From an uncultured Clostridia bacterium (GTDB taxonomy: Bacteria; Bacillota; Clostridia; Oscillospirales; CAG-272), in assembly GCA_945936265.1 (NCBI GenBank), contig CAMETB010000001.1, positions 1 to 33,335 on the forward strand: a stretch of 33,335 nt of DNA, given 5' to 3'. The notes below the pieces were generated by a model. It made no database searches, was not told the DNA's origin, and was given only the letters and a program-made list of their open reading frames with translations. Positions 11,731 to 30,169 of the stretch are shown one piece after another (positions within the stretch are counted from its first letter, which is position 1; each line of letters opens with the position of its first letter). Both the position numbers and the translations under genes were made by a program.

Positions 11731-12981
11731 TTATTTATCCTGCGCGACGGTGTTTTTCTTTTTCGGCTTCTCTATCTCTCCGGCAAGCTCGAAGCCTTTC
11801 TTTGCGGCAATTACCGCAATAATTTCGTTTATTACTGCCGCTGCCGCAACCGTGCCTTGCACTATGCCTGCAAGGTCTGAGCGTGTAGCCGAGAGCGTTG
11901 TACAGATAATTCCCGTAAAAACAAGGGAAACGCCCGAATGAGGCAAAAGGGTAAGCCCGAGATATTTCTGAACGGTGGGCGCCATATTTGTTGCCTTTGC
12001 GCCGAGCCTTGCGCCGAAGTATTTTCCGACGATACGTGCGGATATATAAACGAAGGTATAAATGCCTGCGCCGAGTATCAGGCGATAGTTAAGGGGTGCG
12101 CCGAGATCGACTATGGCGGCAAGCAACGAAATGCCAAGTATCGGAGAGAAATCAGCAGTGATTTCGGCAAGGCGCTCCTCGCTTACCATATTGCTGAAAA
12201 CCGCAGAGAATGAAACACCCATAAGCATATAATTGAGCGTTATTCCCGAGAGCAAAAACGTATTGAAAATCCAGCCGATAACCATTGTACAGGTAATTCC
12301 GAGAAGCAAGACGGCAAGCGTTTTTGCCTTGCCTTTTACACGTTTGAGCAAAAGCCCTACGGGCAAGCCGACAATAATTCCTATGGCAACGGGCAAAAGA
12401 ATCATAACTGGTATCATATAAAACGGCATGGAGCCGCCCGAAACCTCTCTTGCTATAAGAGAATTTACGGTAAAGAACACAATAATTCCGACTATATCGT
12501 CAAGTACCGCCATCGGCAAAAGAGTATCGGTAACGGGGCCCTTGGCGTGAAATTCATTGACTATTGATAAAGCGGGGGCGGGAGCTGTGGCAAGTGCAAT
12601 CCCTCCGAACGCAAAAGCAAGGTATATCGGTATATCGGAAAGTGAAAAGATTATTCCGAACACAAGGCTGACGACTGCAAAGGTGCCGAGCGACTGCGTC
12701 ATTGTTGTTATTACAAGCGCCTTGCCGTAGTTTTTAAGTTTTTTCCATACAAGTTCCGTGCCGAGCATCAAGCCGAAGGCACATTGCATCCACATTATAA
12801 TTACCTTGTACCAATCGGAGTCCATAAGTTCCGTCGGCATAAGTCCGACGGCGTGAGGACCGAATATCATGCCGACGATAAGCCAGCCGAGAATTGCGGG
12901 CATCCTGATTTTTGACATAAGTTTTCCCGCAATAAAGGCAATTATTAAAACCGCTATCCAGCGAAATAAATACAATACCAT
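11731..12981 (-). CDS. Cation:proton antiporter (Na+/H+ exchanger family) membrane protein
   Basis: This is a 416 aa, highly hydrophobic polytopic protein with about 11-12 predicted helices and a Gly/Ala/Ile/Leu-rich composition typical of CPA-type exchangers. Its ATG directly abuts the tetR stop, so the two are probably co-transcribed. Confidence 0.7.
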   Translation of the reverse strand: MVLYLFRWIAVLIIAFIAGKLMSKIRMPAILGWLIVGMIFGPHAVGLMPTELMDSDWYKVIIMWMQCAFGLMLGTELVWKKLKNYGKALVITTMTQSLGTFAVVSLVFGIIFSLSDIPIYLAFAFGGIALATAPAPALSIVNEFHAKGPVTDTLLPMAVLDDIVGIIVFFTVNSLIAREVSGGSMPFYMIPVMILLPVAIGIIVGLPVGLLLKRVKGKAKTLAVLLLGITCTMVIGWIFNTFLLSGITLNYMLMGVSFSAVFSNMVSEERLAEITADFSPILGISLLAAIVDLGAPLNYRLILGAGIYTFVYISARIVGKYFGARLGAKATNMAPTVQKYLGLTLLPHSGVSLVFTGIICTTLSATRSDLAGIVQGTVAAAAVINEIIAVIAAKKGFELAGEIEKPKKKNTVAQDK

Positions 12982-13587
12982 TTACTCTCTCTCCTCTGCG
13001 ATACCGTAGAGCATAAAGTCAAAAAGCTTCATCACGTTTTCCTCGTGTATCTTTACTCTTTTCCCAAGCTCGACACCCCTGTAAAGCGGGCTGCTGAAAT
13101 ATCCGTTAAACATAGTCTGCATAAGGCGGAAATACGAAAGGGCGTCGTCCTTCGTTATGCCTTTTCTTAAAACGAGCGTATCGACCGTCTTTTTATAAAT
13201 GCTTTCGTTGAGTTTGTTAAAACTATCGAGCGCTTCGCTTATTTCCTCTGACAGATGGCTTTGCGGCATAAGAAGCGCCTCAAAAAAGATATGCGCCTCG
13301 TTTGGAAACGCCTTAAAAAATTCCATACGGACGGACATATATTTTTCCAGGCTTTCCTCTCCGCCTCTTTTGCGGATATATTCCGTAAAAGTATCGCAAC
13401 TCTTTTTTAAGCAGAACAGGTAAAGACCGTCCTTGCCCGTAAAATTATGATAGATAAGTCCTTTGTTTATTCCCGACTTACATATATTATTTATCGTGCC
13501 GCCGATATAACCGTTTGTGCCGAACTCGTCCATTGCGACCCCGGTTATCTTTGAAACGGTGATTTTCGTTTTTTCGCTTTTCTTCAT
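12982..13587 (-). CDS. TetR/AcrR family transcriptional regulator
   Basis: The N-terminal HTH region reads ITGVAMDEFGTNGYIGGTINNICKSGINKGLIYHNFTGKDGLY. I prefer the start at MKKSEKTK (ATG 13587) because AAGGAG lies 7 nt upstream. The longer track ORF would run through the promoter. Confidence 0.8.
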   Translation of the reverse strand: MKKSEKTKITVSKITGVAMDEFGTNGYIGGTINNICKSGINKGLIYHNFTGKDGLYLFCLKKSCDTFTEYIRKRGGEESLEKYMSVRMEFFKAFPNEAHIFFEALLMPQSHLSEEISEALDSFNKLNESIYKKTVDTLVLRKGITKDDALSYFRLMQTMFNGYFSSPLYRGVELGKRVKIHEENVMKLFDFMLYGIAEERE

Positions 13588-13648: not shown

Positions 13649-13708
13649 AATATATGCAAAAAACCGAAAAATGTTTTGGCTAAAAGTCAATGCGTTCATT
13701 TTTGCAAA

Positions 13709-13738
13709 TAAAAAAATGCCCCCTCGGGCATTTTTTAT
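13709..13738. terminator. Intrinsic terminator hairpin flanked by A- and T-runs
   Basis: AAAAAAATGCCC-CCTC-GGGCATTTTTTAT. The palindrome extends outward to TGCAAATAAAAAAA...TTTTTTATTTGCA. It sits immediately after the stop-equivalent of the guaA 3' remnant. Confidence 0.8.
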
Positions 13739-13835
13739 TTGCACTCGGTATGGGCGGTAGTGGCGTTACGTCATAGAGTATAAGAGATATTTTATCTCCG
13801 AAGTTATCAATCGCTCTCACCCGGAATGCATCTAT
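13735..13835 (-). pseudogene. Decayed remnant of the last ~30 codons of a GMP synthase (guaA) gene
   Basis: The minus strand reads ...AIDNFGDKISLILYDVT, then in a shifted frame ATTAHTECK*. Intact guaA ends ...IMDNFGDKISLVLYDVTGKPPATVEWE*. The distance from the core to the stop is 48 nt here and 52 nt in the intact gene, so the remnant is out of frame. Confidence 0.8.
13783..13808. repeat. Direct repeat copy 1 (26-nt exact match to 25887-25912)
   Basis: AGAGATATTTTATCTCCGAAGTTATC is identical at both positions and in the same orientation. Flanking similarity is partial, for example 13 of 17 matches on the stop-codon side. Confidence 0.9.
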
Positions 13836-13917
13836 AACTGCTTTTTATCCGCTGGCGGTTTTATTTGCGTTTAACAGCATGAAACGGATATACAAAACAT
13901 TTTGTTTTTAAGTTATT

Positions 13918-15024
13918 TCAAACTTCCTGAGACCCTGTTTCTTCATCCCTGACAGCGTCTAATGCTGCCCGGATAACCTTGTCCATATCAAGATACTCAT
14001 ATCGTCCCAGACGTCCGCCGAAAATAACATCGGGATGTAAAGCCGAAAGTTCCCGATACTTTGAATACAGCGCCATATTTTTTTTATCATTGACAGGATA
14101 GTAAGGATCCATACCCTTATGCCATTCTGCCGGATATTCACGACTTATAACTGTTGTTTTCTGCGTCCCGTATTCGAAATGTTTGTGTTCTATTATACGT
14201 GTATACGGTATGTCTGATGATGTATAATTCACCACGGCGTTCCCTTGATAATTTTCACAACATAAAATCTCTTCTTCAAAACGAACGCAACGGTACTCCA
14301 GCTCGCCATAACAGTAATCAAAATATTCATCTATCGGTCCGCTGTAAACCGTTTTAAGTGCATCAACCGATTTTTCAATCTGCTTATAATCGGTGTTCAG
14401 CAATACCTCGATACCATCCAGCAATTTATCGAAAATCACTGAATAACCGCCTATCGGAACGCCCTGATATATATCGTTGAAATAATTATTGTCATAGGTA
14501 AATCTTATCGGAATTCTGTCAATTATGAAGGCAGGGAGATCTTTGCATTTTCTGCCCCATTGTTTTTCGGTATATCCCTTGATTAGTTTCTCATATATAT
14601 CAGTTCCAACCAAGGATATCGCTTTCTCTTCCAGATTGTTGGGTGATGAAATTCCGGAATGCAGAATTTGTTCCGATATTATCTTTTTTGCCTCGGAAGG
14701 CGTTTTTATGCCCCACATTTTGCTGAATGTGTTCATATTGAAGGGCAGGTTGTAAATCTGACCCTTATATACGGCGAGCGGTGAATTGATAAAGTTGTTG
14801 AATTCTGCATATTTGTTTACATAATTCCATATCTCACTATCCGAAGTATGAAATATATGCGCGCCGTATTTATGAACATTTATGCCTTCCGTTTGCTCGG
14901 TATAGCAATTTCCTCCGATATGCGGACGTTTATCGATAACCAGACATTTTTTTCCTCTGTCCGTCATCTCTCTTGCAAATACGGCGCCGAATAATCCCGC
15001 TCCTACAACAAGATAATCGTACAT
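13918..15024 (-). CDS. glf: UDP-galactopyranose mutase
   Basis: It has the FAD-binding start MYDYLVVGAGLFGAVFA. Family-typical stretches include HIGGNCYT, HKYGAHIFHT, IIEHKHF, YYPVN and GRLGRYEYLDMD. Length is 368 aa. Confidence 0.9.
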   Translation of the reverse strand: MYDYLVVGAGLFGAVFAREMTDRGKKCLVIDKRPHIGGNCYTEQTEGINVHKYGAHIFHTSDSEIWNYVNKYAEFNNFINSPLAVYKGQIYNLPFNMNTFSKMWGIKTPSEAKKIISEQILHSGISSPNNLEEKAISLVGTDIYEKLIKGYTEKQWGRKCKDLPAFIIDRIPIRFTYDNNYFNDIYQGVPIGGYSVIFDKLLDGIEVLLNTDYKQIEKSVDALKTVYSGPIDEYFDYCYGELEYRCVRFEEEILCCENYQGNAVVNYTSSDIPYTRIIEHKHFEYGTQKTTVISREYPAEWHKGMDPYYPVNDKKNMALYSKYRELSALHPDVIFGGRLGRYEYLDMDKVIRAALDAVRDEETGSQEV

Positions 15025-15855
15025 TTATTTTCTCCTTAAACCCTTGACAATCTTTTTAGCTAAAAATCTTCTCTTGCTCTCAGGTGGGAAAAGTGCATCT
15101 GAAATTCTTTTTTTAGCCGAGCAGCAGATATCAAGCCGGGGAAGTTCTTTTATCAGGACTTTATTTTCGTAACAGTATGATATATATATTCCGGTAAATA
15201 TCTCCCCTAAATATCCGTCCGCTCTGTCAGACTGAAAATCTCCATGGGGCTTTTTCAGCAAATCAAATTCGTTCAATGCATTGAAAAGTATATCACAGTA
15301 CTCGTAAAAGTGAGCCTTATCCATAATAAACATATTACAAAAATATTGCCTTTGCTGTGATAAATACTTTTCAACAGTTTCAGAAAGATGCGGAGATTGC
15401 TTTTTAAGTATTTTTATGAACAAATTCAAATCATCGGCGTAATGATACTGGGAGCCGCAATAGTGTTCGCGAACCGTCAGGCCCATATTTTCACTACGCG
15501 GAGCTATAATTTCGTATCCGGAAATAAGTTTTTCCCATTGTTCCCCGGTGCCGAGAAGTCTTTCATCGGTCAATTGTGAAAATACAAGATACGGGCGCTT
15601 TATGCTGTCATCAATGCAAAAAAGCCTTCGGTAATGACAAAAGCCGTAATAATCGGCAGAAATGTTTTTCCAGGCATAGTAATGAGCTGTAAGTTCGCAA
15701 TATTCACGATTTTTTATCGATATATTTTCGCCATCATTATCGTGAATTACGCCGGCAATACACGGGTTCAAAGCCGCCCCGCATTGTATTGGATTAAATA
15801 AAGGCGGAATTATGCTGTACGAATTATGGCAACATAAGAACAAAGCGTTTTTCAT
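15025..15855 (-). CDS. DUF4422-type glycosyltransferase (probable galactofuranosyltransferase)
   Basis: Motifs PIQCGAAL, DNDGENISIKNREYCELTAHYYAWKN and YYGFCHYRRLF match my recollection of the DUF4422 family. It lies directly adjacent to glf. The start is uncertain. I prefer ATG 15855 (MKNALFL) over the track's TTG at 15882. Confidence 0.7.
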   Translation of the reverse strand: MKNALFLCCHNSYSIIPPLFNPIQCGAALNPCIAGVIHDNDGENISIKNREYCELTAHYYAWKNISADYYGFCHYRRLFCIDDSIKRPYLVFSQLTDERLLGTGEQWEKLISGYEIIAPRSENMGLTVREHYCGSQYHYADDLNLFIKILKKQSPHLSETVEKYLSQQRQYFCNMFIMDKAHFYEYCDILFNALNEFDLLKKPHGDFQSDRADGYLGEIFTGIYISYCYENKVLIKELPRLDICCSAKKRISDALFPPESKRRFLAKKIVKGLRRK

Positions 15856-15976
15856 AAGCGAAAATTTCTCCGTACCGGACAATATGCTTAATAAGTTACA
15901 TACTGTATGGTTTAATTACACAAATCAGGACTCCGAACACAAAATCAACGGGTCAAAAAATATCATTTTAACTGTT

Positions 15977-17071
15977 TTATTGAACTTTAATCCAACTTAT
16001 AAGCTTTCTATATGCCTGTTCCAATCCTACTTGAGGCTTCCACCCGAGAGAACAAAGCTTGGTATTATCCAAAAACAGTTTTGTGTTCGGAGCGTATCCG
16101 TATTTCATTGAATCCGAAGGAATGTCAATAACAACTTTTATTTTATCCTCCGCAATATTATGAGCAACCATCCGAGCCATTTCTATTATAGTTGTATGGC
16201 TTGCCGGATTGCATATATTGTATGCTTCTTTGTACTTGCCTTTTTTCAACAATATAAGAATTGCTCTTATTGCATCAGATGTATATACATAGTTACCCTC
16301 TGACAATCCATTTGTGTGAAGGACTATATCGTTTCCGTCGATAACGCTCCTTGCGAATTGAGCAAACACCCTGTTTTCTGTCGGGAGAATCCCCGCACCG
16401 AAGGTCTGTGCAAGCCTTGCCGTTGTTACATTGACTCCGTATTGCGCCGAATAGGCGTTGCACAAGCACTCACATGCGCGCTTGCTTTCCGGATAACAAC
16501 TTCTGACGGAGGAAAGATCAATATAGCCAAGCGACTTTTCATCTGTCATCTCATTTTTTTCGATGTTTCCGTATACCTCCATCGAAGAAAGATATACCAT
16601 TGACGCGTTATTATCACGGGCAATTTTGAGCAATGAATCGGTACTGTTGAACGCCGAAACAAGAACAGATACCGGGAATGTTACCATTTCCTTTGAGTTT
16701 GTTATGGCTGCCGTATGGATTATAAAGTCGACTTTATCCGAAAATTCAAAATTTCCGCTCCCTAAATCTTCCGTTACCACAAAAGAAAGCGCCGTATTGT
16801 CTGATTCCTGTGAAAAAACAGACTTTGCTTTTTCTATATTTCTGACAACAGCATAAATCTTAATTTTCAGATCGTATTTTCTGTTGTAGTAAAGCAGCGT
16901 TTTGACCATGAGCGATCCTATAAGCCCTGTGCTACCCGTTATGAGAAACGAAGAACCGTAAAAATCTTTCAATCTCAATCCGTCAGATTCAACAGACTCA
17001 AAATCCTCTTCCAGAATTTTATCTTGCAAAGACAAATCAATAGCCATTGATTTGAGAATCCTCCCTTGCAT
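15977..17071 (-). CDS. Extended SDR (NAD-dependent epimerase/dehydratase/reductase family)
   Basis: It has ITGSTGLIGS (GxxGxxG), SSMEVYG and YPESKRACE (YxxxK). The start is ambiguous (TTG 17074, ATG 17071 or ATG 17047). Every option overlaps the stop of the upstream cytidylyltransferase gene. Confidence 0.75.
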   Translation of the reverse strand: MQGRILKSMAIDLSLQDKILEEDFESVESDGLRLKDFYGSSFLITGSTGLIGSLMVKTLLYYNRKYDLKIKIYAVVRNIEKAKSVFSQESDNTALSFVVTEDLGSGNFEFSDKVDFIIHTAAITNSKEMVTFPVSVLVSAFNSTDSLLKIARDNNASMVYLSSMEVYGNIEKNEMTDEKSLGYIDLSSVRSCYPESKRACECLCNAYSAQYGVNVTTARLAQTFGAGILPTENRVFAQFARSVIDGNDIVLHTNGLSEGNYVYTSDAIRAILILLKKGKYKEAYNICNPASHTTIIEMARMVAHNIAEDKIKVVIDIPSDSMKYGYAPNTKLFLDNTKLCSLGWKPQVGLEQAYRKLISWIKVQ

Positions 17072-17765
17072 CAAGAATCGCTCTCATAATATAAAAATCT
17101 TCCGGCGTGGTTATTTTAATGTTATCCTTCGGGCCTTCCGTCAGGTGAAGTTCTTTGCCGTAAAATTTCATCATTGAACAGGAATCGATAAAATCGTTCA
17201 ACCCGGATTTCAAAGACTGACGATGCGCTTCAAGAATATCTTTAAGCCAGAAACTCTGCGGGGCGCGTGCGAGTTTACAATCTTTGCGTGGAGGCACTGA
17301 TAATATTCTGCCGTCTTCGTCTGCCATCAGAACCGTTTCCTGTGCCTTAACACAAGTGATGCAACTCCCGTATTTAAGCACACAATCAATGTTGTCATCA
17401 ATAGTCTGAGAGGTAATGAGAGGTCTTACTCCATCATGGATAAGAACGATGCATTTATCTTTGTCCTCCCCTGCAATCTCCTCCGCCGCACATAAGCCGA
17501 AGTAGATCGACTGCTGACCGGAAGTGCCGCCCTTCTTTATCATCTTAACTTTCCTTATGTTGTACTTGTCAAGCAACATGTTCAGATGATCAATCCATCC
17601 GTCAACGCATACTACAACTATTGCATCTATGCGTGGGTTGTTCTCAAACACTTTCAATGTGTGGATTATTATCGGTTCTCCGTGTACTTCCAAAAACTGT
17701 TTAGGTCTTTCCTTGCTGTTCATTCTGGCACCTACACCGCCTGCAAATATAACCGCTATATTCAT
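17037..17765 (-). CDS. IspD/TarI-family cytidylyltransferase (CDP-alditol or related CDP-activated donor synthesis)
   Basis: The N-terminus MNIAVIFAGGVGARMNSKERPKQFLEVHGEPII is the AGGxGxRM...KQF signature of IspD/TarI enzymes. Length is 242 aa. Confidence 0.8.
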   Translation of the reverse strand: MNIAVIFAGGVGARMNSKERPKQFLEVHGEPIIIHTLKVFENNPRIDAIVVVCVDGWIDHLNMLLDKYNIRKVKMIKKGGTSGQQSIYFGLCAAEEIAGEDKDKCIVLIHDGVRPLITSQTIDDNIDCVLKYGSCITCVKAQETVLMADEDGRILSVPPRKDCKLARAPQSFWLKDILEAHRQSLKSGLNDFIDSCSMMKFYGKELHLTEGPKDNIKITTPEDFYIMRAILDAREDSQINGY

Positions 17766-17775
17766 CTTTTTCTCC

Positions 17776-20247
17776 CTATTTCTTCATCTTCAAACGACGT
17801 TTGATTTCCTGTGTTATTCTCTCTGAATTATCCGGTCCGTTGGCTGTCTCATCAAAGAAATACTTCAATACTTCTTTTCGCCACCCGGCGTCCTTCTGAG
17901 GATCTTCAAGATATTTTCCCACTTCTTCCATTGTTTCTTCCCAGGTGTAAGTTTTAGGACCGGGAGTTGCTTCCATATAATCGAGATTCATATCGGTATC
18001 ATTTTTACAAAATGTTTCATAGTCATAGCAAAAGAACACTGCTGCTTTGTCAAATAATAAGAAATCGTATGCTATGGAAGAGTAATCGGAAATTATTACT
18101 GCGTAATCGTTTATTCTCGGATAAATATCCTTTTCATCATCAAATTTTATTCTGTCATATTTTTTTATAACCGGTTTGATTAATTTCGAATAATTGCGCC
18201 ATGTGTTCGGATGAAGACGAAGGACAAATACCGAATCGTATTTTTCCATGGTTTCCTGAATCATACTGACACTGTCAAGAAAATTTTTAACAAGCGACTT
18301 CTCGTCTTCCTCTTTCATACGATAAGTCGGCGCATATATCACATAATTTTTTGAAGGTGAACTCAATGAATTATATACAGGCAAATTTCTCGGATGACCT
18401 GCCATGAAATAACTTGACTCCGGTATGTTCCATCTCTTTCCGAACATATCTATCCGTTCCTGACCGGGACAAACAAACAGAAAATATTTCTCGAACAATT
18501 CTCTGAAATAAGCATGCCTGAAATACTTGATTTTCTTTATAAATCTCGTGCCTGCGGAATCTCCCGGCTGTGCAATTATGTCGGTGCTGTACATTACCCC
18601 GGCAACATCGGTATTTTTAACTTCCTTGCCATTGCCCATAGATTTAAGACCGACGCCATGCCAGAGTTGGACTATCTTCGTTCTGTCACTTAATCCGTGC
18701 AGCGGATTATAATCCGTCATTTTGAAATGGTCGGTAACAGCCACAGAACAACGAGCCATCCTCCATGCCCCCGCAATCGTATTGTTCATAGAGACAGGGT
18801 AACCGTTTGCCTTCAGTTTCTTATAGAGTTCTTTGCTTTTTGTAAACCAAATGGCCTTTATTTCCGGGTGGTTTTTCACTACATATTCATAGTAATACTT
18901 TGCATTGTCGAAAAATTTGTTTCCTGCGTAAAACGAAGTAAATGCCCATCTCTTTTTGCTCTTCGGTATGAGACAATTCAGCCAGTATGCAATGAATTTG
19001 GAAAAATTATAAACTTTCCTTGAAAACTTGCACTTTTTCAGTCTGGAAATAAATTTCTTTATTTTCGCTTTTGTCAATGACAATCTGGTATATAACTTTA
19101 CTATAGGCTTGAAAAGATGCATAAATTTCGAGTTTCTTGCGACAATTTTATTACCTTCCCAGCCATAAATTCTTGTCATCCTTCTGCTGTCGTTATAAAA
19201 TGACAAATATGCGTTTAAGGAAATTACGCCGGCATCCGGGAAAGTTATGAAAAAATCCGCAATTTCTTTTTTCATATTGTTCTTGACCAGCACCTGCAGA
19301 TACAAACTTGCCTCGTATTTAATGCGATTCTCTATCTGAACAACGCCGTATCCGCCATACCATCTGATGAAAAACTGTCGTAATCCCGTCAACATTATCA
19401 GATACTGCGGTCTCGTATACAAAAAGTTCTCGTCCATGCTCTTGTATGTTGTAAGAGAGTTGTCGTTTTTTCTGTATACAGCCATTACTTTGTCTTCCAG
19501 GTACACCATGCCCCGACGTCCCATATGCAAAAGGAACATCGGCAAATCGCCTATATACTTGTTTCTGTAAAACCAATCGGGAAGAGGGTTAAGATCTTGA
19601 TTTACACGCAGCATTACAGCGAGTGGCGTAGGATTTCCCCCACACTCCATAAATGTCTTTACATCATAATAATTGTTTTTTGATTTTTTAAATTCCGGAA
19701 TACACTCCGGCATATAAATGTTTCCATCTTTTGCTCTCTTATAATACGTTTCAAGAAAATGATTTTTCGGCAGCGTCATCAGAACATTGCAGAAACATCC
19801 CCCTAAATCGGGATGCGCAGCCAAGTAATCATATTGATATTGGAGTTTGTTTTCGTCGGTCCAGTAATCATCCCCGTCACAAAATGCGACAAAAGGTGAC
19901 GCAGCAACTGCCCTCTCGCAAAGGTCTCCGAAATTTCTCATACTTCCTACATTTTTACGTCTTAAAACAGGTACTATCAACCCCGGATATCTTTTTGCAT
20001 ATTGTCTTACAATATCTGTCGTTCCGTCAGTACTGCAGTCGTCACCGACAAGTATCTGAAACCTGAAATTAGTCTTCTGGCATACAAGGCTGTCAAGGCA
20101 CTCTTTTATATATTCCTTCTGATTATAAGTAACGGTTACAATTGAAACCATTATCGGATTGACTTTTTTACGAACCGTTGTCTTTTTTTTCTTTGTTAAT
20201 TTCTTTTTGTTGCTTTTCTTATTTGTTTTTGACATATCCAATACCAA
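17776..20247 (-). CDS. Bifunctional GT2 glycosyltransferase / TagF-like CDP-alditol phosphotransferase
   Basis: The N-terminal GT2 domain reads VSIVTVTYNQKEYIKECLDSL...LVGDDCSTDGTTDI...CDGDDYW. The C-terminal Glyphos_transf-type motifs are IVQLWHGVGLK, VIYAPTYR, VLRLHPN and ISDYSSIAYDFLLFDKAAVFFCYDYE. The start is uncertain (TTG 20247, ATG 20235 or ATG 20151). Confidence 0.8.
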   Translation of the reverse strand: MVLDMSKTNKKSNKKKLTKKKKTTVRKKVNPIMVSIVTVTYNQKEYIKECLDSLVCQKTNFRFQILVGDDCSTDGTTDIVRQYAKRYPGLIVPVLRRKNVGSMRNFGDLCERAVAASPFVAFCDGDDYWTDENKLQYQYDYLAAHPDLGGCFCNVLMTLPKNHFLETYYKRAKDGNIYMPECIPEFKKSKNNYYDVKTFMECGGNPTPLAVMLRVNQDLNPLPDWFYRNKYIGDLPMFLLHMGRRGMVYLEDKVMAVYRKNDNSLTTYKSMDENFLYTRPQYLIMLTGLRQFFIRWYGGYGVVQIENRIKYEASLYLQVLVKNNMKKEIADFFITFPDAGVISLNAYLSFYNDSRRMTRIYGWEGNKIVARNSKFMHLFKPIVKLYTRLSLTKAKIKKFISRLKKCKFSRKVYNFSKFIAYWLNCLIPKSKKRWAFTSFYAGNKFFDNAKYYYEYVVKNHPEIKAIWFTKSKELYKKLKANGYPVSMNNTIAGAWRMARCSVAVTDHFKMTDYNPLHGLSDRTKIVQLWHGVGLKSMGNGKEVKNTDVAGVMYSTDIIAQPGDSAGTRFIKKIKYFRHAYFRELFEKYFLFVCPGQERIDMFGKRWNIPESSYFMAGHPRNLPVYNSLSSPSKNYVIYAPTYRMKEEDEKSLVKNFLDSVSMIQETMEKYDSVFVLRLHPNTWRNYSKLIKPVIKKYDRIKFDDEKDIYPRINDYAVIISDYSSIAYDFLLFDKAAVFFCYDYETFCKNDTDMNLDYMEATPGPKTYTWEETMEEVGKYLEDPQKDAGWRKEVLKYFFDETANGPDNSERITQEIKRRLKMKK

Positions 20248-20264
20248 TCTTCAATTTGTTTATT

Positions 20265-21542
20265 TTAAACTCTCCAGTCCAAAAGCGCTTCCACTTCGCT
20301 GCAATCAAAAACAGGAATGCCGCAGACACGGCTCACATCATAACGCTCGCTGAAAGCGTCATCGATAAATATTGCAGACTTTTGTACTATATATGATGAC
20401 TTAGGTTTATCGTTGTCAATAACGATAATATCACTGAAAAGTTCCTCGCTGATATGAAAATCCTTAAGGCTCGAATGGATATCTTTACTGTGCCGGCTTA
20501 AAAGCACGATGTTCTTACCCTGATTTTTCGCCTGATAAAGAAACATCATAAGAATTGTATTTACTTTATCTCCCAGATGAACCGTGTCATCAAAATCCAC
20601 ATAGACCCAGGAATATTCGATATCTGTTTTATAACGGCTTATAAATGCACGGTCGACCGTTATACTGTACTTATTGTCAATAACCGTTACGGGAACGCCT
20701 TCAAAACAAAATAAAGTCATCATCGGATAGTTAAGCCCGAGATTTCGGGTTATTCCCATTGTCCCCGCAATTCTGGGGGCAACCTCCATCAACCGATATT
20801 CTCCGGAATCATTTCTTTTCAGCTGGAAAAACCATGCACCTTTGAAATGAAGACGACTGTTGATAATTTTTGCAATTTGCTTTACCTTTTCATCTTCGGG
20901 CAAAATCTCGCTGCTTACGCTTATACCTGTCCTTATCCGTTTTCTGTTTCGCATTTTAAAGCACAATAAATTTCCGTCATTGTCTGTGAAACAGTCAACA
21001 GTATATTCTTCACCGCTGAGATACTCACATATTATTCTCCCGGGGTTTTCATTCAATGCATATTTAAGTTCCGCCGCGTCGTTCACTTTCAGAGCGCCCT
21101 GCGCACCTTGTCCGACATCCGGCTTTACAAACACGGGAAATTTCTTAACCTCACTCTCAGAGTATGTATCCGGCACAAAATCCTCGTCTTTGAAAAGCCT
21201 GTATGTTTTTGATTTTGAACGGCAGATCTCCGTTGTGTAAAGATCAGCGGAAACAATCACAGCGTTTATTTTATCTGCATTTTGCACAAGAAACAGTTGA
21301 ATATCATCGTACGCCGGATATATGTAATCTATTTCATACTCCTTAATCACTTCATTGAGTTTTTCAATAAAATCCGGAGAATCAAAATACGGCACCCCGG
21401 TAATGCAATTTGAAAAAACATATTCGCTGTGATTAGGCGTACTGGTCAACCCGTATACTTTGAAATGCTTGGAATATTTCAGTGCGTTATTTATTTCAAG
21501 TCCTATTTCGGAACCTGCGGGAAAAACAAGTACGTTTTTCAT
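20265..21542 (-). CDS. ATP-grasp ligase fused to a small HAD-like phosphatase domain
   Basis: Residues 1 to about 300 form the ATP-grasp domain (FPVFVKPDVGQGAQGALKV, ICEYLSGEEYTVDCF, LMEVAPRIAGTMG). The C-terminal ~110 aa carry HAD motifs: I VDFDDTV (DxDxT), II VLLSR, III DKPKS, IV FIDDAFSE. Confidence 0.7.
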   Translation of the reverse strand: MKNVLVFPAGSEIGLEINNALKYSKHFKVYGLTSTPNHSEYVFSNCITGVPYFDSPDFIEKLNEVIKEYEIDYIYPAYDDIQLFLVQNADKINAVIVSADLYTTEICRSKSKTYRLFKDEDFVPDTYSESEVKKFPVFVKPDVGQGAQGALKVNDAAELKYALNENPGRIICEYLSGEEYTVDCFTDNDGNLLCFKMRNRKRIRTGISVSSEILPEDEKVKQIAKIINSRLHFKGAWFFQLKRNDSGEYRLMEVAPRIAGTMGITRNLGLNYPMMTLFCFEGVPVTVIDNKYSITVDRAFISRYKTDIEYSWVYVDFDDTVHLGDKVNTILMMFLYQAKNQGKNIVLLSRHSKDIHSSLKDFHISEELFSDIIVIDNDKPKSSYIVQKSAIFIDDAFSERYDVSRVCGIPVFDCSEVEALLDWRV

Positions 21543-22513
21543 CGGTTTTTGCTCCTAATTTCAAATTTTATCTTTCTTATTTTCTCCGAAAGTTTTGTCA
21601 TAATCGCGACAAATACCGCAATCGGTGATATGGCAATGAATTTAATTTTTCCTACGCGGGATATTACTTGCTTTAAGCATTCTGAATTTGCAGGGCTCTT
21701 GCGGATAAGTGATTTTATCAATGCACTGCCGCATATTTTCAGTTTTCTTGTCCTGAAACAAATTTTTTTATTTTCAATATCCGACGCTAATTGTGATAAT
21801 TTTTCATTTATGTCGTAATCAACAACGGAATTTTCATTTTTATAAATTTTGTCTGTAACGCTCCCGTCGGAAAATTTACGATAGCAACCGAGTATTCTGC
21901 TCAATCGATAAAAATTTCCCTTCATCGAATACAACATTACAATGGTTCTGTCTGAAATCTGGGGATGTACCTCGTACATATTTCTAAGTTCCGGATACTC
22001 GCTGAAAATATTACGGTACATCATCGTACTTGTCTGACCCGGTAAAAATATCCCCTTAAAACTCTTGAATGTAAATTTCCGGTTATAAGATATCCACGGC
22101 AAAAAGCCATCACCCGAGAGCCTTCCGTCCTCTCCGATCAAAGTACAATCCCCGCAGCAGCCTATAAATCGAGGATGCGTTTCCATAAACTCAACCTGTG
22201 AGATAAGTTTATATTTATCACACCAATAATCGTCGCCTTCCAACGTTGCCACATACTTTCCGGAAGCTGCCGCAAGCAACAGATATAAATTTTTCGATGC
22301 ACCTATGTTCTTTTCCCTGACAAACAATTTTATTTTGTCGGGAAACCGCGACCTGAACTCTTCAAGTATGTCGGTTGTACCGTCGGTCGAGCAATCGTCG
22401 CCTATCAATATTTCATAATCAACATCACCCTGCTGAGACAGCACGCTGTTAACCGCTTCGGAAATATATTTTCGTTGGTTATGCGCGATAATCAATACAG
22501 ATACCAAACTCAT
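21539..22513 (-). CDS. GT2 family glycosyltransferase with a C-terminal hydrophobic segment
   Basis: Motifs are VSVLIIAHNQRKYISEAVNSVLSQ, LIGDDCSTDGTTDI and LEGDDYW. The C-terminus contains FIAISPIAVFVAIM. It is paralogous to the GT2 half of the 823 aa protein. Confidence 0.8.
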   Translation of the reverse strand: MSLVSVLIIAHNQRKYISEAVNSVLSQQGDVDYEILIGDDCSTDGTTDILEEFRSRFPDKIKLFVREKNIGASKNLYLLLAAASGKYVATLEGDDYWCDKYKLISQVEFMETHPRFIGCCGDCTLIGEDGRLSGDGFLPWISYNRKFTFKSFKGIFLPGQTSTMMYRNIFSEYPELRNMYEVHPQISDRTIVMLYSMKGNFYRLSRILGCYRKFSDGSVTDKIYKNENSVVDYDINEKLSQLASDIENKKICFRTRKLKICGSALIKSLIRKSPANSECLKQVISRVGKIKFIAISPIAVFVAIMTKLSEKIRKIKFEIRSKNR

Positions 22514-22514
22514 G

Positions 22515-23630
22515 TCAAGCCTTACAACACCGTAGAATCGTATCGCATATCCTGTCTATATCTTCGAAAGAAAGTTCGGCATAGAGCGGAAGCGTGAGAA
22601 CGTTCTCCGAGATTCTTTTTGCTACAGGTGTATCCGCCGGACTGCATTTTTCCCGAATCGCCGTAAAATCAGATGTTATGGGATAGAAATATTTCCTTGC
22701 AAAAATATTTTCGCTCTCGAGAGCCTTTGCTATATCGTCGCGGTTTTTCCCCAATATCTTTTCATCGAAAACAACAGGAAAATAAGAATAGTTGTAAACC
22801 GTGTTTTCTTTTTCTTTACAGAGAGTTATTCCGTCTATTCCGTCGAGGCGTTCGCGATATCTGCCGACGCATGCCTTCCTCTTATCGATGTATTCGTTTA
22901 TATGGCGCATATTACAAATTCCCATCGCGGCCTGAAATTCGTTCATTTTTGAGTTTGTACCAAGAACGCTTACATCATCCTCTCCGGAAAATCCGAACTG
23001 GCACAGAGCGTGAATCCTATCCTTGAGATTGCTGTCTTTAAACGCAAGGCAACCTCCCTCAATCGAATTGAACACTTTTGTAGCATGAAAACTGAACATT
23101 GTAATGTCTCCGAGAGAGGCTACACTTCTTCCGTCGACTTTTTCTCCGAACGCATGTGCACCGTCATATATCACTTTTAAATTATACTTGGATGCCAGCT
23201 GCTCTATCTTTTTATAATTGCAAATATTGCCGTAAACATGTACCGGCATAATGGCGCTAGTTTTTTCCGTAATAAGTGATTCGATTTTATCTGCGTCAAT
23301 GGTATAATCGTTCTCATCGATATCGCAAAATACAGGCGTAAGCCCTTTTCTCATAATCGCCAAAGTCGTGGACGCAAAGGTAAAAGGGGTCGTAATTACC
23401 TCTCCCGTAAGTTCAAGAGCATCAATTGCTATCTCAAGCGCCTGATGCCCGTTTGAAAACAAATGTATATTTGGTATATCCAGATATTTAACGAGTTGCC
23501 TTTCCAATTCCTGATGCTTCTCTCCGAAGTTGGTCAGCCAATGGCTGTCCCAGATTGATCGGATTTCCTTACAATATTCGTCAAAAGGAGGCATTGAAGA
23601 CATTGTAACCCGAATGACATCTTTACTCAT
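22515..23630 (-). CDS. DegT/DnrJ/EryC1/StrS family PLP-dependent sugar aminotransferase
   Basis: The PLP lysine motif is FSFHATKVFNSIEGG. Length is 371 aa. It lies directly downstream of rfbA-rfbB. An AAGGAAAG ribosome-binding site precedes ATG 23630. Confidence 0.85.
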   Translation of the reverse strand: MSKDVIRVTMSSMPPFDEYCKEIRSIWDSHWLTNFGEKHQELERQLVKYLDIPNIHLFSNGHQALEIAIDALELTGEVITTPFTFASTTLAIMRKGLTPVFCDIDENDYTIDADKIESLITEKTSAIMPVHVYGNICNYKKIEQLASKYNLKVIYDGAHAFGEKVDGRSVASLGDITMFSFHATKVFNSIEGGCLAFKDSNLKDRIHALCQFGFSGEDDVSVLGTNSKMNEFQAAMGICNMRHINEYIDKRKACVGRYRERLDGIDGITLCKEKENTVYNYSYFPVVFDEKILGKNRDDIAKALESENIFARKYFYPITSDFTAIREKCSPADTPVAKRISENVLTLPLYAELSFEDIDRICDTILRCCKA

Positions 23631-23659
23631 TTATTTCACTTTCCTTTTTATGTAGTATG

Positions 23660-24679
23660 TTATCTGTTCCCGTACATTTTTGCGTAATAGTCCTTATATT
23701 CGCCGTTGATGATATGTTCCCACCACTCACGGTTTTCAAGATACCACTGAATAGTCTTCTGAATCCCGTCTGCAAATTTTGTTTCCGGGAGCCATCCAAG
23801 CTCGTTGTGTATCTTTGTCGGGTCAATTGCGTATCGTCTGTCGTGTCCTTTGCGATCAGTTACATGTGTTATAAGGCTCTCGGGTTTATCAAGTGCCTTA
23901 CATATTATCCTGACGATATCGATGTTTCTCATCTCATTGTGCCCGCCGATATTATACACTTCTCCGACACGACCTTTATGAATTATCATATCAATCGCTC
24001 GACAGTGATCTTCGACATACAGCCAGTCCCGCACATTCAGTCCCTCTCCGTAAACCGGTAAAGGCTTATCATGCAACGCATTGGCTATCATTAACGGAAT
24101 GAGTTTTTCCGGAAACTGATACGGCCCGTAGTTATTTGAACAGCGAGAGATTGTTATCGGTAAACCGTACGTCCTGTAATATGCCTGCACAAGTAAATCA
24201 GCGCTTGCTTTGGATGCGGAATACGGTGAACTTGTGTGTAACGGAGTGGACTCAGTAAACAGCATATCCGGTCTGTCAAGGGGCAAATCCCCATACACTT
24301 CGTCCGTTGATACCTGATGAAAACGCTCTATGCCGTATTTCCGGCAGGCATCCATCATAACGGAAGTTCCCACTATATTGGTATTCAAAAATACGCCCGG
24401 ATTTTCAATTGAACGGTCAACATGACTTTCCGCGGCAAAGTTTATGACAACATCAGGATGCTCGTTTTCGAAAACGTTGAAAACAGCATCGCGATCGGTT
24501 ATATCAACTTTGTAAAACTTAAAATTCGGGTTGCGTGTCAGGGGTGCAATGGTTTCAAAATTCCCTGCATAAGTGAGACAATCAACACAGATTATCTTAT
24601 AATCCGGATGATTTTTCGCCATATAATGAACAAAATTTCCTCCGATAAATCCGGCTCCACCGGTCACTATGATCTTCAT
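23660..24679 (-). CDS. rfbB: dTDP-glucose 4,6-dehydratase
   Basis: Motifs are [23 protein letters not shown] and YSASKASAD, with a C-terminal WW...EY-rich tail typical of RmlB. Length is 339 aa. Confidence 0.9.
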
Positions 24680-25554
24680 TGACTATCCTCCGCCAACTTC
24701 ATAATATACTGTCCGTACTCGGTCATTTTCATCTCTTCTCCGAGTTTTTTCAACTGTTCCGTCGTTATAAATCCACGTCTCCATGCAATCTCCTCGATGC
24801 ATGAAATATAAAAGCCCTGCATATCCTGAACGCTCTGTACAAACTCAGCGGCTTTCAGCATTCTTTTCGGTGAGCCTGTATCAAGCCATGCCATTCCGCG
24901 CCCCATGAGAATTACATTAAGTTTTCCTTCCGACAAATACCGGTTGTTTATCGATGTTATTTCAATCTCACCGCGAGCAGAAGGCTCCACTTTTTTTGCC
25001 ATATCAACAACTTTGTTATCATAAAAATACAACCCCAGAACCGCATAATTCGATTTTGGTTCCGCAGGCTTTTCCTGTATGGAAATAACTTTGTTGTTCT
25101 TATCAAACTCTACAACGCCGAATTCACGCGGATTTGCAACCGGGTAACCGAAAACGGTTGCCCCTCCGTTTTCAACCTGTGCCATCGCAGTTCTCAGATA
25201 TGTACTGAGTCCTTGTCCGTAAAATACATTGTCTCCGAGAACAAGGCACACGCTGTCGTTCCCGATGAAATCTTCACCGAGAATAAATGCATCTGCAAGT
25301 CCGCGGGGCTTGTCCTGAACTTTATATTCGATATGTATTCCTATACGACTCCCGTCTCCCAACAGTTTTCTGTAATTCGGAGTATCGTCGGGAGTGGATA
25401 TTACGAGAATATCTTTTATTCCGGCAAGCAGCAGCACAGACAACGGATAATATATAAGCGGCTTATCATATATTGTCAATAACTGTTTTGAGACCGAAAT
25501 TGTGCTTGGATAAAGGCGGGTCCCTTTGCCCCCGGCAAGAATTATACCTTTCAC
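24676..25554 (-). CDS. rfbA: Glucose-1-phosphate thymidylyltransferase
   Basis: Motifs are [31 protein letters not shown] and [11 protein letters not shown] prefer the GTG start at 25554 (MKGIILAGG) with GAGAGG upstream over the track's GTG at 25572. Confidence 0.9.
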
Positions 25555-25684
25555 AGCAGTTAAACCTCTCACATCTTTTTTATCAGCATAATATACAATA
25601 GCTTCCGGAGTCAGATTATTGCATATTTCTGCAATTTTCAGAAATATTCAACCTGTTTTCAGTGGCTGATATTCCTAAGTTATA

Positions 25685-25713
25685 ATTATAACTTATTTAT
25701 TTCTTTATGTCAA
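25685..25713 (-). promoter_or_regulatory. Consensus sigma-A promoter of the glycopolymer operon
   Basis: The minus strand reads TTGACA - 17 nt - TATAAT, a perfect match to both hexamers. This gives a leader of about 120 nt before rfbA. Confidence 0.65.
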
Positions 25714-25834
25714 CATATTTCGATTCGTTTGTGCAAATTTCCAAATAAATCCGTGTCGTTTTATGTTGATAAACGGCATTTGTAAAACGTCATTAAAAAG
25801 CTGCTCTACATTGTTCAGGCGCTTTTGTAAATTT

Positions 25835-27712
25835 TCATTCCCACTCGACGGTGGCGGGAGGTTTACCCGTTACGTCGTAGAGGACGAGAGATATTTTATC
25901 TCCGAAGTTATCCATTATCTCTTTGGTTGCGGCTTTGAGTTCGTCTATCGGGAAATCGACGCCCGGCATTGCGCTGCGCGCGGTCATAAAGTCGCTTGTG
26001 CATACGGCTCTCATTGCTACAGAGAAACGTTTGCCCTCGTCGCAGGAGATGGGCAGCAAAACTGCGAAGCACTGAGCAGTCTTTTTGTTCATCAGGTGCT
26101 TTGTCACTATGGCGTCAAGTTCTCTTAAAAGTTCGGCGTTTTCGTGATTTATGTGCATAGGGGTGCAAAAAGTTGCTCCCTGCATTTCGTTCTTATTGGT
26201 ACAGTAGGTGACTCTGTTTATATAGTCAAGTTTATTCGGAATAAGTTTTGCAAGCGAATAAAGATTTTCAAAATCGCAGTCAAGAGCATCCTTGCCCTTT
26301 ACGTTGTTATAGAGTATAGCCATACTTCTGTACGAACGGTTATCGCCCTGAACGCCTACCGAACGGATAGGCGCTATATCGCTGTCGTACGGATAACCCG
26401 ACACAACCTCGTCAAGTTTGTTTATCTTGTCCGCATCGTTAAAAGTGCCTATATAGTCCGTACATATCATACGGACGCCAAGCCCGGGTCCGGGGAACGG
26501 CTGGCGGGACGCTATTTCCTCGTCAAGACCGAGCATCCTTGCAACTTGCCTTACCTCGTCCTTGTGCCAATCCCAGTTGGTTTCTATGACATGGCCTTTA
26601 TCCCTTAAAGTCCTTATTACTCCGACGTCGTTATGATGCGTTTTTATCTTGTTTGCATATCCGCTGACGTCGGGGTTGCCCGATTCTATAAGGTCGGGGC
26701 GCAAAGTTCCCTGGGCGAGAAATGCGGTATCGAAATCGAGATTGAGTTTTTTTGCCGCCTCCTCAGTGACAACGAAGAACATATGGCCTATTATCGCTCT
26801 TTTTTTCTCCGGCTCACAGGTTTGACAAAGCGGCTTATACTCCACTCCGTCAATTGTTAAGGGTGTGTTGAAAAACTCGTCCTCGGCGTTTATCCTTTGC
26901 ATATTTACAAGTCCGAGTTTTGCGAGATTTTCGCATATAAGATCGCTCTCGTTCTTTCTCATCATACCGTGGTCAATATGAATACCGTAAACCTGATCGG
27001 GACGGAGCGCCTTTGTAAGAAGTGCCGCGGTAACTGCCGAGTCAACGCCACCGGATACCAGAACGACGACTTTGCCGTTTTCGCCGACGCGCTCTCTTAT
27101 CATTCTTACCGACGTTTCTATTCTGTCCTCAAGGGCATATACCTCTTTCAGCGCGCAGACCTTGCGAAGAAAGTTTTCAAATATTTTCATTCCGTTTACC
27201 GTCGGCTCAACCTCGGGATGAAACTGAACGCCTGTTATCTTCTTTTCTCCATTCCATATTCCCGCAACGACGCCCTCGGTGGAAGCGACAACCCGGAAGC
27301 CGTCTGCAACCTTGGCAACCGCATCTCCGTGGGACATGAGAACGTATTCCTTGTCAGAGAGCCCGTCAAATACGGGGCAGGTATTGTCGATATCTATGAG
27401 TATCTGACCGTACTCCGTCTTTACCCCGGGTTTTACCACTCCTCCGAAGTACTCATTGATAAGTTGCATACCGTAACATATCCCGAGCATCGGCTTGCCG
27501 AGAGAAAATATCCTTTTATCGTATTTCGGCGCTCCGTCGCTCCACACGCTTGACGGACCTCCGCTGAGTATTATGGCGTTGTGATCCTTTATTTTATCGG
27601 GATCGACTCCGAGCGGAAATATATCCGTGTATACGCCGAGTTCCCTCACCTTGCGGTCTATAACCTTTGTGTACTGTCCGCCGCAATCAAGTATTGCAAC
27701 CTTTTCTGTCAT
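25835..27712 (-). CDS. guaA: Glutamine-hydrolysing GMP synthase, long (eukaryote-like) form
   Basis: The GATase domain has ILDCGGQYTKVIDRKVRELGV, GICYGMQ and QFHPEV. The ATP-PPase P-loop is VLVSGGVDSAV. Later motifs are AQGTLRPDLIES, IKTHHND and VGVQGDNRSY. The C-terminus is YDVTGKPPATVEWE. At 625 aa it is about 100 aa longer than the usual bacterial enzyme. Confidence 0.9.
   Translation of the reverse strand: MTEKVAILDCGGQYTKVIDRKVRELGVYTDIFPLGVDPDKIKDHNAIILSGGPSSVWSDGAPKYDKRIFSLGKPMLGICYGMQLINEYFGGVVKPGVKTEYGQILIDIDNTCPVFDGLSDKEYVLMSHGDAVAKVADGFRVVASTEGVVAGIWNGEKKITGVQFHPEVEPTVNGMKIFENFLRKVCALKEVYALEDRIETSVRMIRERVGENGKVVVLVSGGVDSAVTAALLTKALRPDQVYGIHIDHGMMRKNESDLICENLAKLGLVNMQRINAEDEFFNTPLTIDGVEYKPLCQTCEPEKKRAIIGHMFFVVTEEAAKKLNLDFDTAFLAQGTLRPDLIESGNPDVSGYANKIKTHHNDVGVIRTLRDKGHVIETNWDWHKDEVRQVARMLGLDEEIASRQPFPGPGLGVRMICTDYIGTFNDADKINKLDEVVSGYPYDSDIAPIRSVGVQGDNRSYRSMAILYNNVKGKDALDCDFENLYSLAKLIPNKLDYINRVTYCTNKNEMQGATFCTPMHINHENAELLRELDAIVTKHLMNKKTAQCFAVLLPISCDEGKRFSVAMRAVCTSDFMTARSAMPGVDFPIDELKAATKEIMDNFGDKISLVLYDVTGKPPATVEWE
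25887..25912. repeat. Direct repeat copy 2 (26-nt exact match to 13783-13808), inside the guaA 3' end
   Basis: The same 26-mer, AGAGATATTTTATCTCCGAAGTTATC, encodes DNFGDKIS of the intact guaA. Confidence 0.9.
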
Positions 27713-27806: not shown

Positions 27807-27835
27807 TTGACAATCGTTTTCAATGTGATTATAAT
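27807..27835 (+). promoter_or_regulatory. glmS promoter
   Basis: TTGACA - 17 nt - TATAAT, a perfect consensus, divergent from the guaA promoter. Confidence 0.65.
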
Positions 27836-27889
27836 AGTAGTGTCGGAGTAAACACGGAGGACTTACTTTTGACATGCCGTGGCTATGGA

Positions 27890-28037
27890 GATAGCAAGCG
27901 CCGGGACCAAAATCCACACATGGTTGACGAGGAGAAGGTTTATCGAAAGATTCGGCGGATACCTTCCGTTTTGTGCAGGCGAAATTTCGGCTTAAAAAAT
28001 TCGGGTAATCGGATAACAAAGAGCCGAAAAGCACATA
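27890..28037 (+). ncRNA. glmS ribozyme (GlcN6P-dependent self-cleaving riboswitch)
   Basis: The conserved core reads A|GCGCCGGGACC...GACGAGGAGAAGGTTTATCGAAAGATTCGGCGGATACCTTCC...GTGCAGGCGAAATTTCGGC...GAGCCGAAAAGCAC. This matches the Bacillus/Thermoanaerobacter glmS ribozyme core as I remember it. It sits in the 5' UTR of glmS. The predicted cleavage site is between A27897 and G27898. Boundaries are approximate. Confidence 0.85.
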
Positions 28038-28151
28038 AAATGAAATCAGACTTCGGGAAGTCTTTTGGGCTGCCTTTTTTCTCTTTATTCTGAAAACGGG
28101 CGGGTATGTGTATGTAAATTCAAAAAGGCTCCCATAACGAAAGGAAAAAAT

Positions 28152-30029: not shown

Positions 30030-30142
30030 CGAATAATCTTCGGGGCAGGGTGTAATTCCCGATCGGCGGTAAAGTCCGCGAGCATTTGGCAGATCCGGTG
30101 TGATTCCGGAACCGGCAGTAAAGTCTGAATGAAAGAAGATAA
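30030..30142 (+). promoter_or_regulatory. FMN riboswitch (RFN element)
   Basis: The sequence is ATCTTCGGGGCAGGGTGTAATTCCCGATCGGCGGTAAAGTCCGCGAGC...GATCCGGTGTGATTCCGGAACCGGCAGTAAAGTCTGAATGAAAGAAGAT. This matches the conserved RFN core, with P1 closed by TCTTC/GAAGA. It lies upstream of a riboflavin-transporter gene. Confidence 0.9.
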
Positions 30143-30169
30143 AAAATTCGCTAAAAAGCGTATTTTCTG

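Follow-up and report, generated by a model that had tools for sequence, protein, structure and literature searches.

A 12-kb glycopolymer operon inserted at the 3' end of guaA in an uncultured gut Clostridia bacterium, probably the domesticated remnant of an integrative element

The window analyzed here is a 33,335-nt stretch of contig CAMETB010000001.1 (assembly GCA_945936265.1) from an uncultured Clostridia bacterium, and its middle part carries an operon of surface glycopolymer genes that was inserted at the 3' end of guaA, which encodes GMP synthase. The inserted DNA comprises 12,015 nt (13812-25826, minus strand) and, as BLAST maps and alignments revealed, is absent from strains with an empty site. 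We consider it probable that this operon was acquired horizontally by insertion at the guaA 3' end and is now the stranded, domesticated remnant of an integrative element, resembling a cis-mobilizable element (CIME), with an integrase as the likeliest agent of its insertion. An earlier reading of the letters of the window, made without database searches (the sequence-only reading), had proposed a 12-kb island delimited by direct repeats of the guaA 3' end. The comparison with related strains confirmed this outline, and the two repeat copies, 25835-25915 and 13735-13811, bracket 12.0 kb.

Two lineages were recognized by exact-protein look-ups of GuaA variants in the same 90% cluster. In the lineage of the window, GuaA is at least 99.5% identical, whereas the sister lineage shows ~90% nucleotide identity in the flanks and synonymous differences per site (pS) of ~0.32-0.39. 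The target gene itself (25835-27712, minus strand) is intact and encodes a 625-aa glutamine-hydrolysing GMP synthase with Pfam matches to GATase and GMP_synt_C; the exact protein was also found on independent contigs. The proximal, attL-like repeat copy (25835-25915, minus strand) consists of the live last 26 guaA codons with the TGA stop and ends in the 13-mer CGAGTGGGAATGA. The distal, attR-like copy (13735-13811, minus strand) is a relic of the last ~77 nt of guaA. A repeat search matched 13764-13811 with 25868-25915 over 48 nt at 90% identity (BLAST E ~1e-11), and when one 4-nt gap was allowed, the similarity extended to the guaA stop codon. These 48 nt are the first of the relic; they are followed by a 4-nt deletion and a strongly diverged tail, and the terminal 13-mer of the relic mismatches CGAGTGGGAATGA at three of 13 positions. 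The first 16 codons of the relic are in frame and read IDNFGDKISLILYDVT, the live counterpart being MDNFGDKISLVLYDVT. The live gene ends in TGA, whereas TAA is found in the relic and in the sister-lineage contigs L171, L175, L177, L180, L003, and L176.

The edges of the insert were defined by the alignment with L171. Homology to the window ends at 25827, 8 nt past the guaA stop, and restarts at 13811, from where it runs through the relic and the terminator, indicating that the relic is the displaced original guaA end with its terminator still attached. This ancestral terminator is a strong hairpin (13703-13743, minus strand; -22.8 kcal/mol, z = -4.3), which lies directly 3' of the guaA stop in L180, L171, L175, and L177 and now stands at the end of the inserted operon. 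The hairpin between the live guaA stop and the operon promoter is weak and no better than that of shuffled sequence.

All assemblies found for the lineage of the window (L001, L002, and L163-L170) contain the island, and one further metagenome-assembled genome (MAG) at NCBI has ten genes between GuaA and TetR, judged by accession number. The structure with both junctions recurs in independent assemblies from NCBI, ENA, and Logan, and an empty site was not seen among contigs with the guaA alleles of this lineage. The sister lineage is different. In L180, which is free of the island, AAAAATGCCCGAGAGGGCATTTTTT comes immediately after the guaA stop, and the tetR promoter, tetR, and a gene of the Na+/H+ exchanger family come next. 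L171-L174, L175, and L177 also have an empty site with the terminator straight after guaA; there the coding sequences of tetR and the exchanger are missing, and a piece of the tetR promoter region is kept (L171 11597-11711). This loss is a separate backbone deletion, that is, a second independent indel, and thus neither tetR nor the exchanger gene belongs to the island. Other DNA follows the stop codon in at least two strains: in L176 a different cargo (11879-12307) begins directly past guaA with a hairpin resembling a terminator, and the gene for a WYL-family regulator comes next; in L003 unrelated DNA follows the stop (3862-3992) until the contig ends 131 nt later. The cluster is thus not conserved at this position: four or more arrangements of the site occur in the sister lineage, and the glycopolymer operon is in none of them.

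Several smaller observations concern the same junction. L178, from the same MAG as L176 (GCA_051867955.1), begins at ATAACTTCGG, within 1 nt of the boundary of the relic in the window, and continues (1-100) with an intact 80-nt guaA end, the terminator, and tetR. Its start could mark a younger second island with a fresh repeat, or it could reflect a strain mixture in the assembly. In L179 (1-80), the DNA immediately upstream of the shared terminator is not from guaA, which is a further type of junction, and contigs in this species complex often end near guaA. The cargo of L176 was followed up and set aside: its 107-aa open reading frame (ORF) is a member of a WYL-type family that is widespread and occurs mainly on short contigs, and the one long contig looked up (L181) has an unrelated context. 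An unusual conservation of the guaA end was rejected as well, for the 65-nt run that is identical between the lineages is unexceptional beside runs of 63-126 nt elsewhere. We also rejected a foreign 3' block in the live guaA, whose identity to the sister lineage is uniform (87-95% per 150 nt).

Comparison of the window with L167 showed how long the operon has been in place. The island genes have a pS of 0.01-0.06, with ratios of nonsynonymous to synonymous differences per site (pN/pS) mostly below 0.1 and at most 0.33, and the pS of the flanks is 0.02-0.10. Since the divergence of the island matches that of the flanks, the island was already present in the common ancestor of both strains and has been under purifying selection. 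The most variable gene is a fusion of a family-2 glycosyltransferase (GT2) with a TagF-like transferase (17776-20247 in the window, 17478-19970 in L167), with 95% identity and a 33-nt indel; its product has 819 aa in L001 and L163 and 830 aa in L167. Identity is 98.4-99.8% for the remaining genes of the island.

The operon consists of ten ORFs, all on the minus strand and running from 25572 to 13918, and every one of them has a Pfam or NCBIfam match to glycopolymer genes, in agreement with the ten co-directional genes named in the sequence-only reading. The intergenic spacers are at most 262 nt. The promoter recognized in that reading (25685-25713, read from 25713 to 25685 on the minus strand) is a sigma-70-type TTGACA-17-TATAAT motif that matches the consensus at 12 of 12 positions, although as a motif only. 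A second site with 12 of 12 positions serves glmS, and a consensus promoter is therefore not a mark of foreignness. Gene overlaps of 4 nt do exist, but there are two of them (rmlA/rmlB and GT2/ATP-grasp) rather than the several that had been proposed; the other junctions are of 0-1 nt, and one overlap is ~35 nt.

The first three genes are rmlA for glucose-1-phosphate thymidylyltransferase (24676-25572; TIGR01207, 454 bits, above the cut-off), rmlB for dTDP-glucose 4,6-dehydratase (23660-24679; TIGR01181, 498 bits, above the cut-off), and a gene for a DegT/DesI-like aminotransferase acting on dTDP-4-keto-6-deoxyhexose (22515-23630; PF01041, 3.9e-94), whose best NCBIfam match, DesI, is below the cut-off. 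They are followed by a GT2 gene (21539-22513; PF00535) and by a gene for an ATP-grasp ligase with a C-terminal extension (20265-21542; PF15632 and PF02655), which probably acylates or aminoacylates the amino sugar. The GT2 + TagF/TarF-like polyol-phosphate transferase fusion (17776-20247) has 823 aa and matches PF00535 and PF04464 (1.8e-35). Next come genes for a TarI-like ribitol-5-phosphate cytidylyltransferase (17037-17765; NF001183, 179 bits against a cut-off of 166) and an SDR-family epimerase/reductase (15977-17074; PF01370), which may be the reductase partner for CDP-ribitol synthesis. The last two genes encode a DUF4422 protein, a putative glycosyltransferase (15025-15882; PF14393, 2.3e-55; no NCBIfam model matched), and UDP-galactopyranose mutase (glf, 13918-15024; TIGR00031, 422 bits, above the cut-off).

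Taken as a set, these genes appear to provide the precursors and transferases of a wall glycopolymer resembling teichoic acid. The precursors would be dTDP-4-amino-4,6-dideoxyhexose, CDP-ribitol, and UDP-galactofuranose, and the likely transferases are the two GT2 domains, the TagF-like polyol-phosphate transferase, and the DUF4422 protein. Two hallmarks of wall teichoic acid clusters are present, namely a transferase of the TagF/TarF family (PF04464) and a TarI-type cytidylyltransferase (NF001183). An exporter (TagGH ABC transporter or flippase), a priming transferase, and an LCP ligase are found neither in the island nor anywhere else in the window, and thus the island is an accessory module that needs machinery encoded elsewhere rather than a complete pathway. 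Transcription would start at the operon's own consensus promoter and end at the old guaA terminator.

No recombinase is encoded in the island, as had been claimed for all frames: the ten ORFs are all assigned to glycopolymer genes, and nine ORFs in alternative frames have no Pfam match. With all ORFs accounted for, spacers of at most 262 nt, and no Pfam match in alternative frames, a recombinase cannot be hidden in it. Pfam searches of the annotated and alternative-frame ORFs also found no relaxase/oriT or conjugation module and no genes for replication, phage interference, or packaging.

The composition of the island is not uniform with that of its surroundings, which is consistent with what hand counts of single lines had suggested. 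GC content is 39.9% in the island and 44.5% in the flanks, and the tetranucleotide correlation to the flanks is 0.76-0.84 inside the island and 0.94-0.95 outside. The shift is real but modest and is weakest at the rmlA-rmlB-degT end, where GC reaches 41.8% compared with 39.2% in the distal 8.7 kb.

The guaA 3' end, named in the sequence-only reading as an integration site, is a target of tyrosine integrases in many phyla, with direct repeats that measure 11 bp in Tn5801 and 12-54 bp in integrative and conjugative elements (ICEs) of streptococci (PMC5704250, PMC4701971, PMC4844618). Tn5801-like islands, ICE_SmiB6_guaA, GIsul2, and ATE-1 are on record at this site (PMC4844618, PMC4701971, PMC5704250). 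To this we added a survey of the first two ORFs downstream of guaA at ~65 distinct loci of related Clostridia with the long GuaA type, 126 ORFs in all. Tyrosine integrases with the architecture Arm-DNA-bind_4, SAM_3, and Phage_integrase account for 11-12 of these ORFs, and an integrase adjoins guaA at about a fifth of the loci (~12 of ~65). When close relatives were paired (guaA 91-99.6% identical), the similarity was gone within 4 nt of the stop codon.

A complete mobilizable element of ~6.3 kb was found at guaA in L103 (11870-18172). Counted from guaA, it encodes an HTH_3 repressor, a small Xis-like helix-turn-helix (HTH) protein, a tyrosine integrase, a NikA-like protein, AAA_25, and a Mob_Pre relaxase, and it is bounded by the direct repeat CGAGTGGGAATGA, which is the last 13 nt of guaA with a second copy ~6.3 kb downstream. 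The live guaA of the window ends in exactly this 13-mer. A similar repeat of 11-13 nt lies 5.4 kb downstream of guaA in L052. Long repeats of the guaA end were not found within 10 kb at 157 related loci, where a more sensitive pass gave only repeats of 11-13 nt.

Among guaA pairs with 98-99.6% identity, the elements at the site differ: L105 has an integrase gene convergent with guaA, and L106 has an HTH gene and then an integrase gene; likewise, an integrase is found in L094 and an rve-type transposase in L096. Past the distal repeat of L103, up to 19100, lie TnpV and a gene for a GNAT acetyltransferase, which may belong to a second, tandem element. In L018, L047, L053, L054, and L068, a shorter second guaA-like ORF lies just downstream of guaA (32-35% identical, ~290 aa matched).

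From these results we propose the following course of events. The 12-kb operon would have entered the chromosome of an ancestor of the lineage at the extreme 3' end of guaA, when a circular element with a guaA end of its own underwent one Campbell-type crossover with that chromosome. The live guaA would have stayed intact by this route, and its terminal nucleotides with the TGA stop may come from the insert; a gene end supplied in this way fits the difference between the live copy, which has TGA, and the relic and the examined sister-lineage strains, which have TAA. The original end, with its TAA stop and terminator, would have been displaced 12 kb downstream, to decay there as a relic. A tyrosine integrase specific for guaA, like those that occupy the site in relatives, is the likeliest catalyst, because the integrases of relatives demonstrably use this site. 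By the same analogy, and from the geometry of the junctions, the element probably once carried mobility genes; their loss and the decay of the distal site would have left it immobile. The sequence-only reading had offered two alternatives, a stranded cargo module of a former integrative element or a cassette moved in trans by an integrase encoded elsewhere. The former fits better, considering the fixation of the island in its lineage, the purifying selection on it, and the decay of its distal repeat, with the integrase as its presumed agent.

Several results weigh against this proposal. The repeat is ~77-81 nt long, against 11-13 nt in integrase-bearing relatives and 11-54 bp in published repeats of ICEs at guaA or other sites, so that the event may have used another mechanism or another type of integrase. 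No integrase, excisionase, relaxase, or remnant of one was found in the island or in the rest of the 33-kb window. Neither the island nor the 26-nt identical block GATAACTTCGGAGATAAAATATCTCT of the guaA-end sites had a match in plasmid, phage, or viral collections, and the left and right spacers of the island had no meaningful similarity to integrase-bearing elements apart from a lone 30-nt match (E = 0.003). The most distinctive island protein, the GT2 + TagF-like fusion, has its closest relative outside the lineage at 65-66% identity; this relative sits in an ordinary chromosomal glycopolymer locus, and a near-identical copy of the island was not found in another species. Finally, scans of genome and metagenome contigs based on GuaA gave no synteny with more distant relatives, and gain versus loss could not be rooted.

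How the operon reached the end of guaA can be explained in other ways. A RecA-dependent insertion of the Campbell type would need no site-specific recombinase: a circle, such as an excised or transformed fragment, carrying ~80-90 nt of the guaA 3' end would have crossed over once. We regard this as unlikely, although it accounts well for a ~80-nt repeat that is far longer than the 13-nt repeats of integrase-bearing elements at guaA and for the absence of a recombinase or its remnant. The homology of the live copy to empty-site strains, which goes ~8 nt past the stop, also fits a block of homology better than a short core, and four of the five differences in the first 48 nt of the relic lie at third codon positions, a hint at two functional guaA alleles as sources that we judged too weak to lean on (p about 0.045). 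However, 80 nt at roughly 90% identity is a poor substrate for RecA, the site is a demonstrated hotspot of tyrosine integrases in relatives, and a circular intermediate bearing exactly the guaA end would be left without explanation. A very improbable variant is homology-facilitated illegitimate recombination with linear DNA from a donor that had the operon natively after guaA, in which one end recombined within guaA and the other was joined 77 nt before the stop of the recipient, whose tail was left behind. It would explain the repeat without any recombinase as well as the difference between the live TGA and the TAA of the relic and the sister-lineage strains examined. Against it, the uniform identity of guaA to the sister lineage leaves no place for a foreign 3' block, and no genome outside the lineage of the window was found with the operon natively beside guaA.

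The polarity could also be reversed, with the operon and both repeats ancestral and the empty strains having lost the operon by recombination between the repeats. A precise deletion of this kind would give the clean guaA-terminator junction of L180, and no outgroup with conserved synteny was found. But the duplicated guaA end would still require an earlier insertion, and only the timing would change; the reduced GC and the deviating tetranucleotide profile speak for a foreign origin; and none of the site states of the sister lineage, at least four, includes the operon. We hold this reversal to be quite improbable. Hardly credible at all is an origin of the second guaA end by tandem duplication on the spot, independent of the cluster, or by chimeric assembly. 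Assemblers do stumble on the repeat, as shown by a run of N inside the relic in scaffold L164 (~1790-1800) of the island-bearing lineage, yet both junctions recur in the independent NCBI, ENA, and Logan assemblies. The copies are 12 kb apart, the DNA between them is exactly what empty-site strains lack, and the relic represents the moved 3' end of guaA, with the ancestral terminator and tetR promoter attached to it as before, which excludes a local duplication as its source.

Among known systems, the closest class is the CIME as defined in PMC5704250, a likeness that does not amount to proven membership. Like a CIME, the island lies between two copies of the 3' end of its target gene, at a site used by integrase-bearing elements of relatives, and it carries adaptive cargo only, without integrase, excisionase, relaxase, or conjugation genes. 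It differs in that its distal site has decayed (3 of 13 core mismatches and a 4-nt deletion), which makes a working attR doubtful, and in that its repeat is ~80 nt rather than 11-54 bp. In addition, no pseudogene or other trace of a mobility module is found in the island, so that its descent from an ICE or an integrative and mobilizable element (IME) is suggested by geometry and site usage, and neither accretion with an incoming element nor mobilization by one was observed for it. With the ICEs, IMEs, and islands that use tyrosine integrases at the guaA 3' end, it shares the target, the intact gene, the direct repeat of the guaA end, and the downstream position of the insert. Those elements, however, encode an integrase next to one junction and usually mobilization or conjugation genes, neither of which the island has; their repeats are 11-13 nt and not ~80 nt, and their cargo typically consists of resistance or defence genes instead of a ten-gene glycopolymer operon. 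Identification as an ICE or IME was rejected, for the island has no integrase of its own. A staphylococcal pathogenicity island (SaPI) or other phage-inducible island was rejected too, as integrase, replication, phage-interference, and packaging genes are absent and there was no match to phages or viruses.

Gene clusters for wall teichoic acid, capsule, and O-antigen tend to have a reduced GC content and to be swapped between strains. The exchange of surface glycopolymer loci usually occurs by homologous recombination in conserved flanks, without a duplicated target end. The island resembles such loci in its lower GC, its presence or absence by lineage, and its combination of nucleotide-sugar genes with transferases, including TagF-like and TarI-like proteins, but it differs by bearing the footprint of a single-crossover insertion. 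The cluster that contains the closest relative of the fusion protein (L183) shares eight of the ten island protein families. It is not located at guaA and has no integrase, and it includes ABC-2 permeases, which the island lacks together with a flippase, a priming transferase, and a ligase.

It is quite improbable that the island is still a working cis-mobilizable cassette, whose two guaA-end copies could be recombined by the guaA-specific integrases of co-resident, L103-like elements; the decay of the distal repeat argues against current mobility. If this were true, whole surface-glycopolymer operons could be excised, travel by accretion, and integrate anew at the guaA of other gut Clostridia. 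Surface antigens would then be exchanged along a site-specific path and not, as is usual, through homology in the flanks. As a stranded remnant, the island documents the entry of a surface-polymer operon at a classic hotspot in uncultured gut Clostridia and its subsequent domestication: it has no mobility genes left, it makes use of the former guaA terminator, and it has become fixed in its lineage. It is a clear but ordinary decayed genomic island and does not alter the current understanding of integrative elements. In this group, the end of guaA varies as a site: one species complex shows four or more states of it, which makes it a useful place to seek strain-specific cargo. The same variability is a likely cause of contig breaks in metagenome assemblies.

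Past the operon, the gene order of the window is a 106-nt spacer, the guaA-end-like fragment, the strong hairpin, tetR, the Na+/H+ exchanger-family gene, ddl, a Mur ligase gene, and three genes for M42 peptidases. The tetR promoter (13647 to 13619), tetR (12982-13587), and the exchanger gene (11731-12981) are all on the minus strand and belong to the backbone outside the island; the two genes adjoin guaA without the island in L180 and L178. Compared with L171 and L175, ddl (10618-11579, minus strand) has a 121-nt deletion with its junction at ~11394/11395, between CACG microhomologies. The frame is shifted after codon 62, and the gene is pseudogene-like here unless the assembly is in error. 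GuaA is of an unusually long form at 625 aa, and GMP_synt_C was matched in two stretches. At the other end of the window, a gene for a BspA-type leucine-rich-repeat surface protein (89-3403, plus strand) contains internal direct repeats and is as atypical in tetranucleotide composition as the island (r = 0.76). Its size varies strongly between strains, the product having 1104 aa in the window, 1780 aa in L171, and 2443 aa in L175. On the plus strand beyond guaA, a glmS ribozyme (27886-28039) lies upstream of glmS, preceded by the promoter with 12 of 12 consensus positions (27807-27835), and a flavin mononucleotide (FMN) riboswitch (30032-30144) lies upstream of the gene for the S component of an energy-coupling factor (ECF) transporter.

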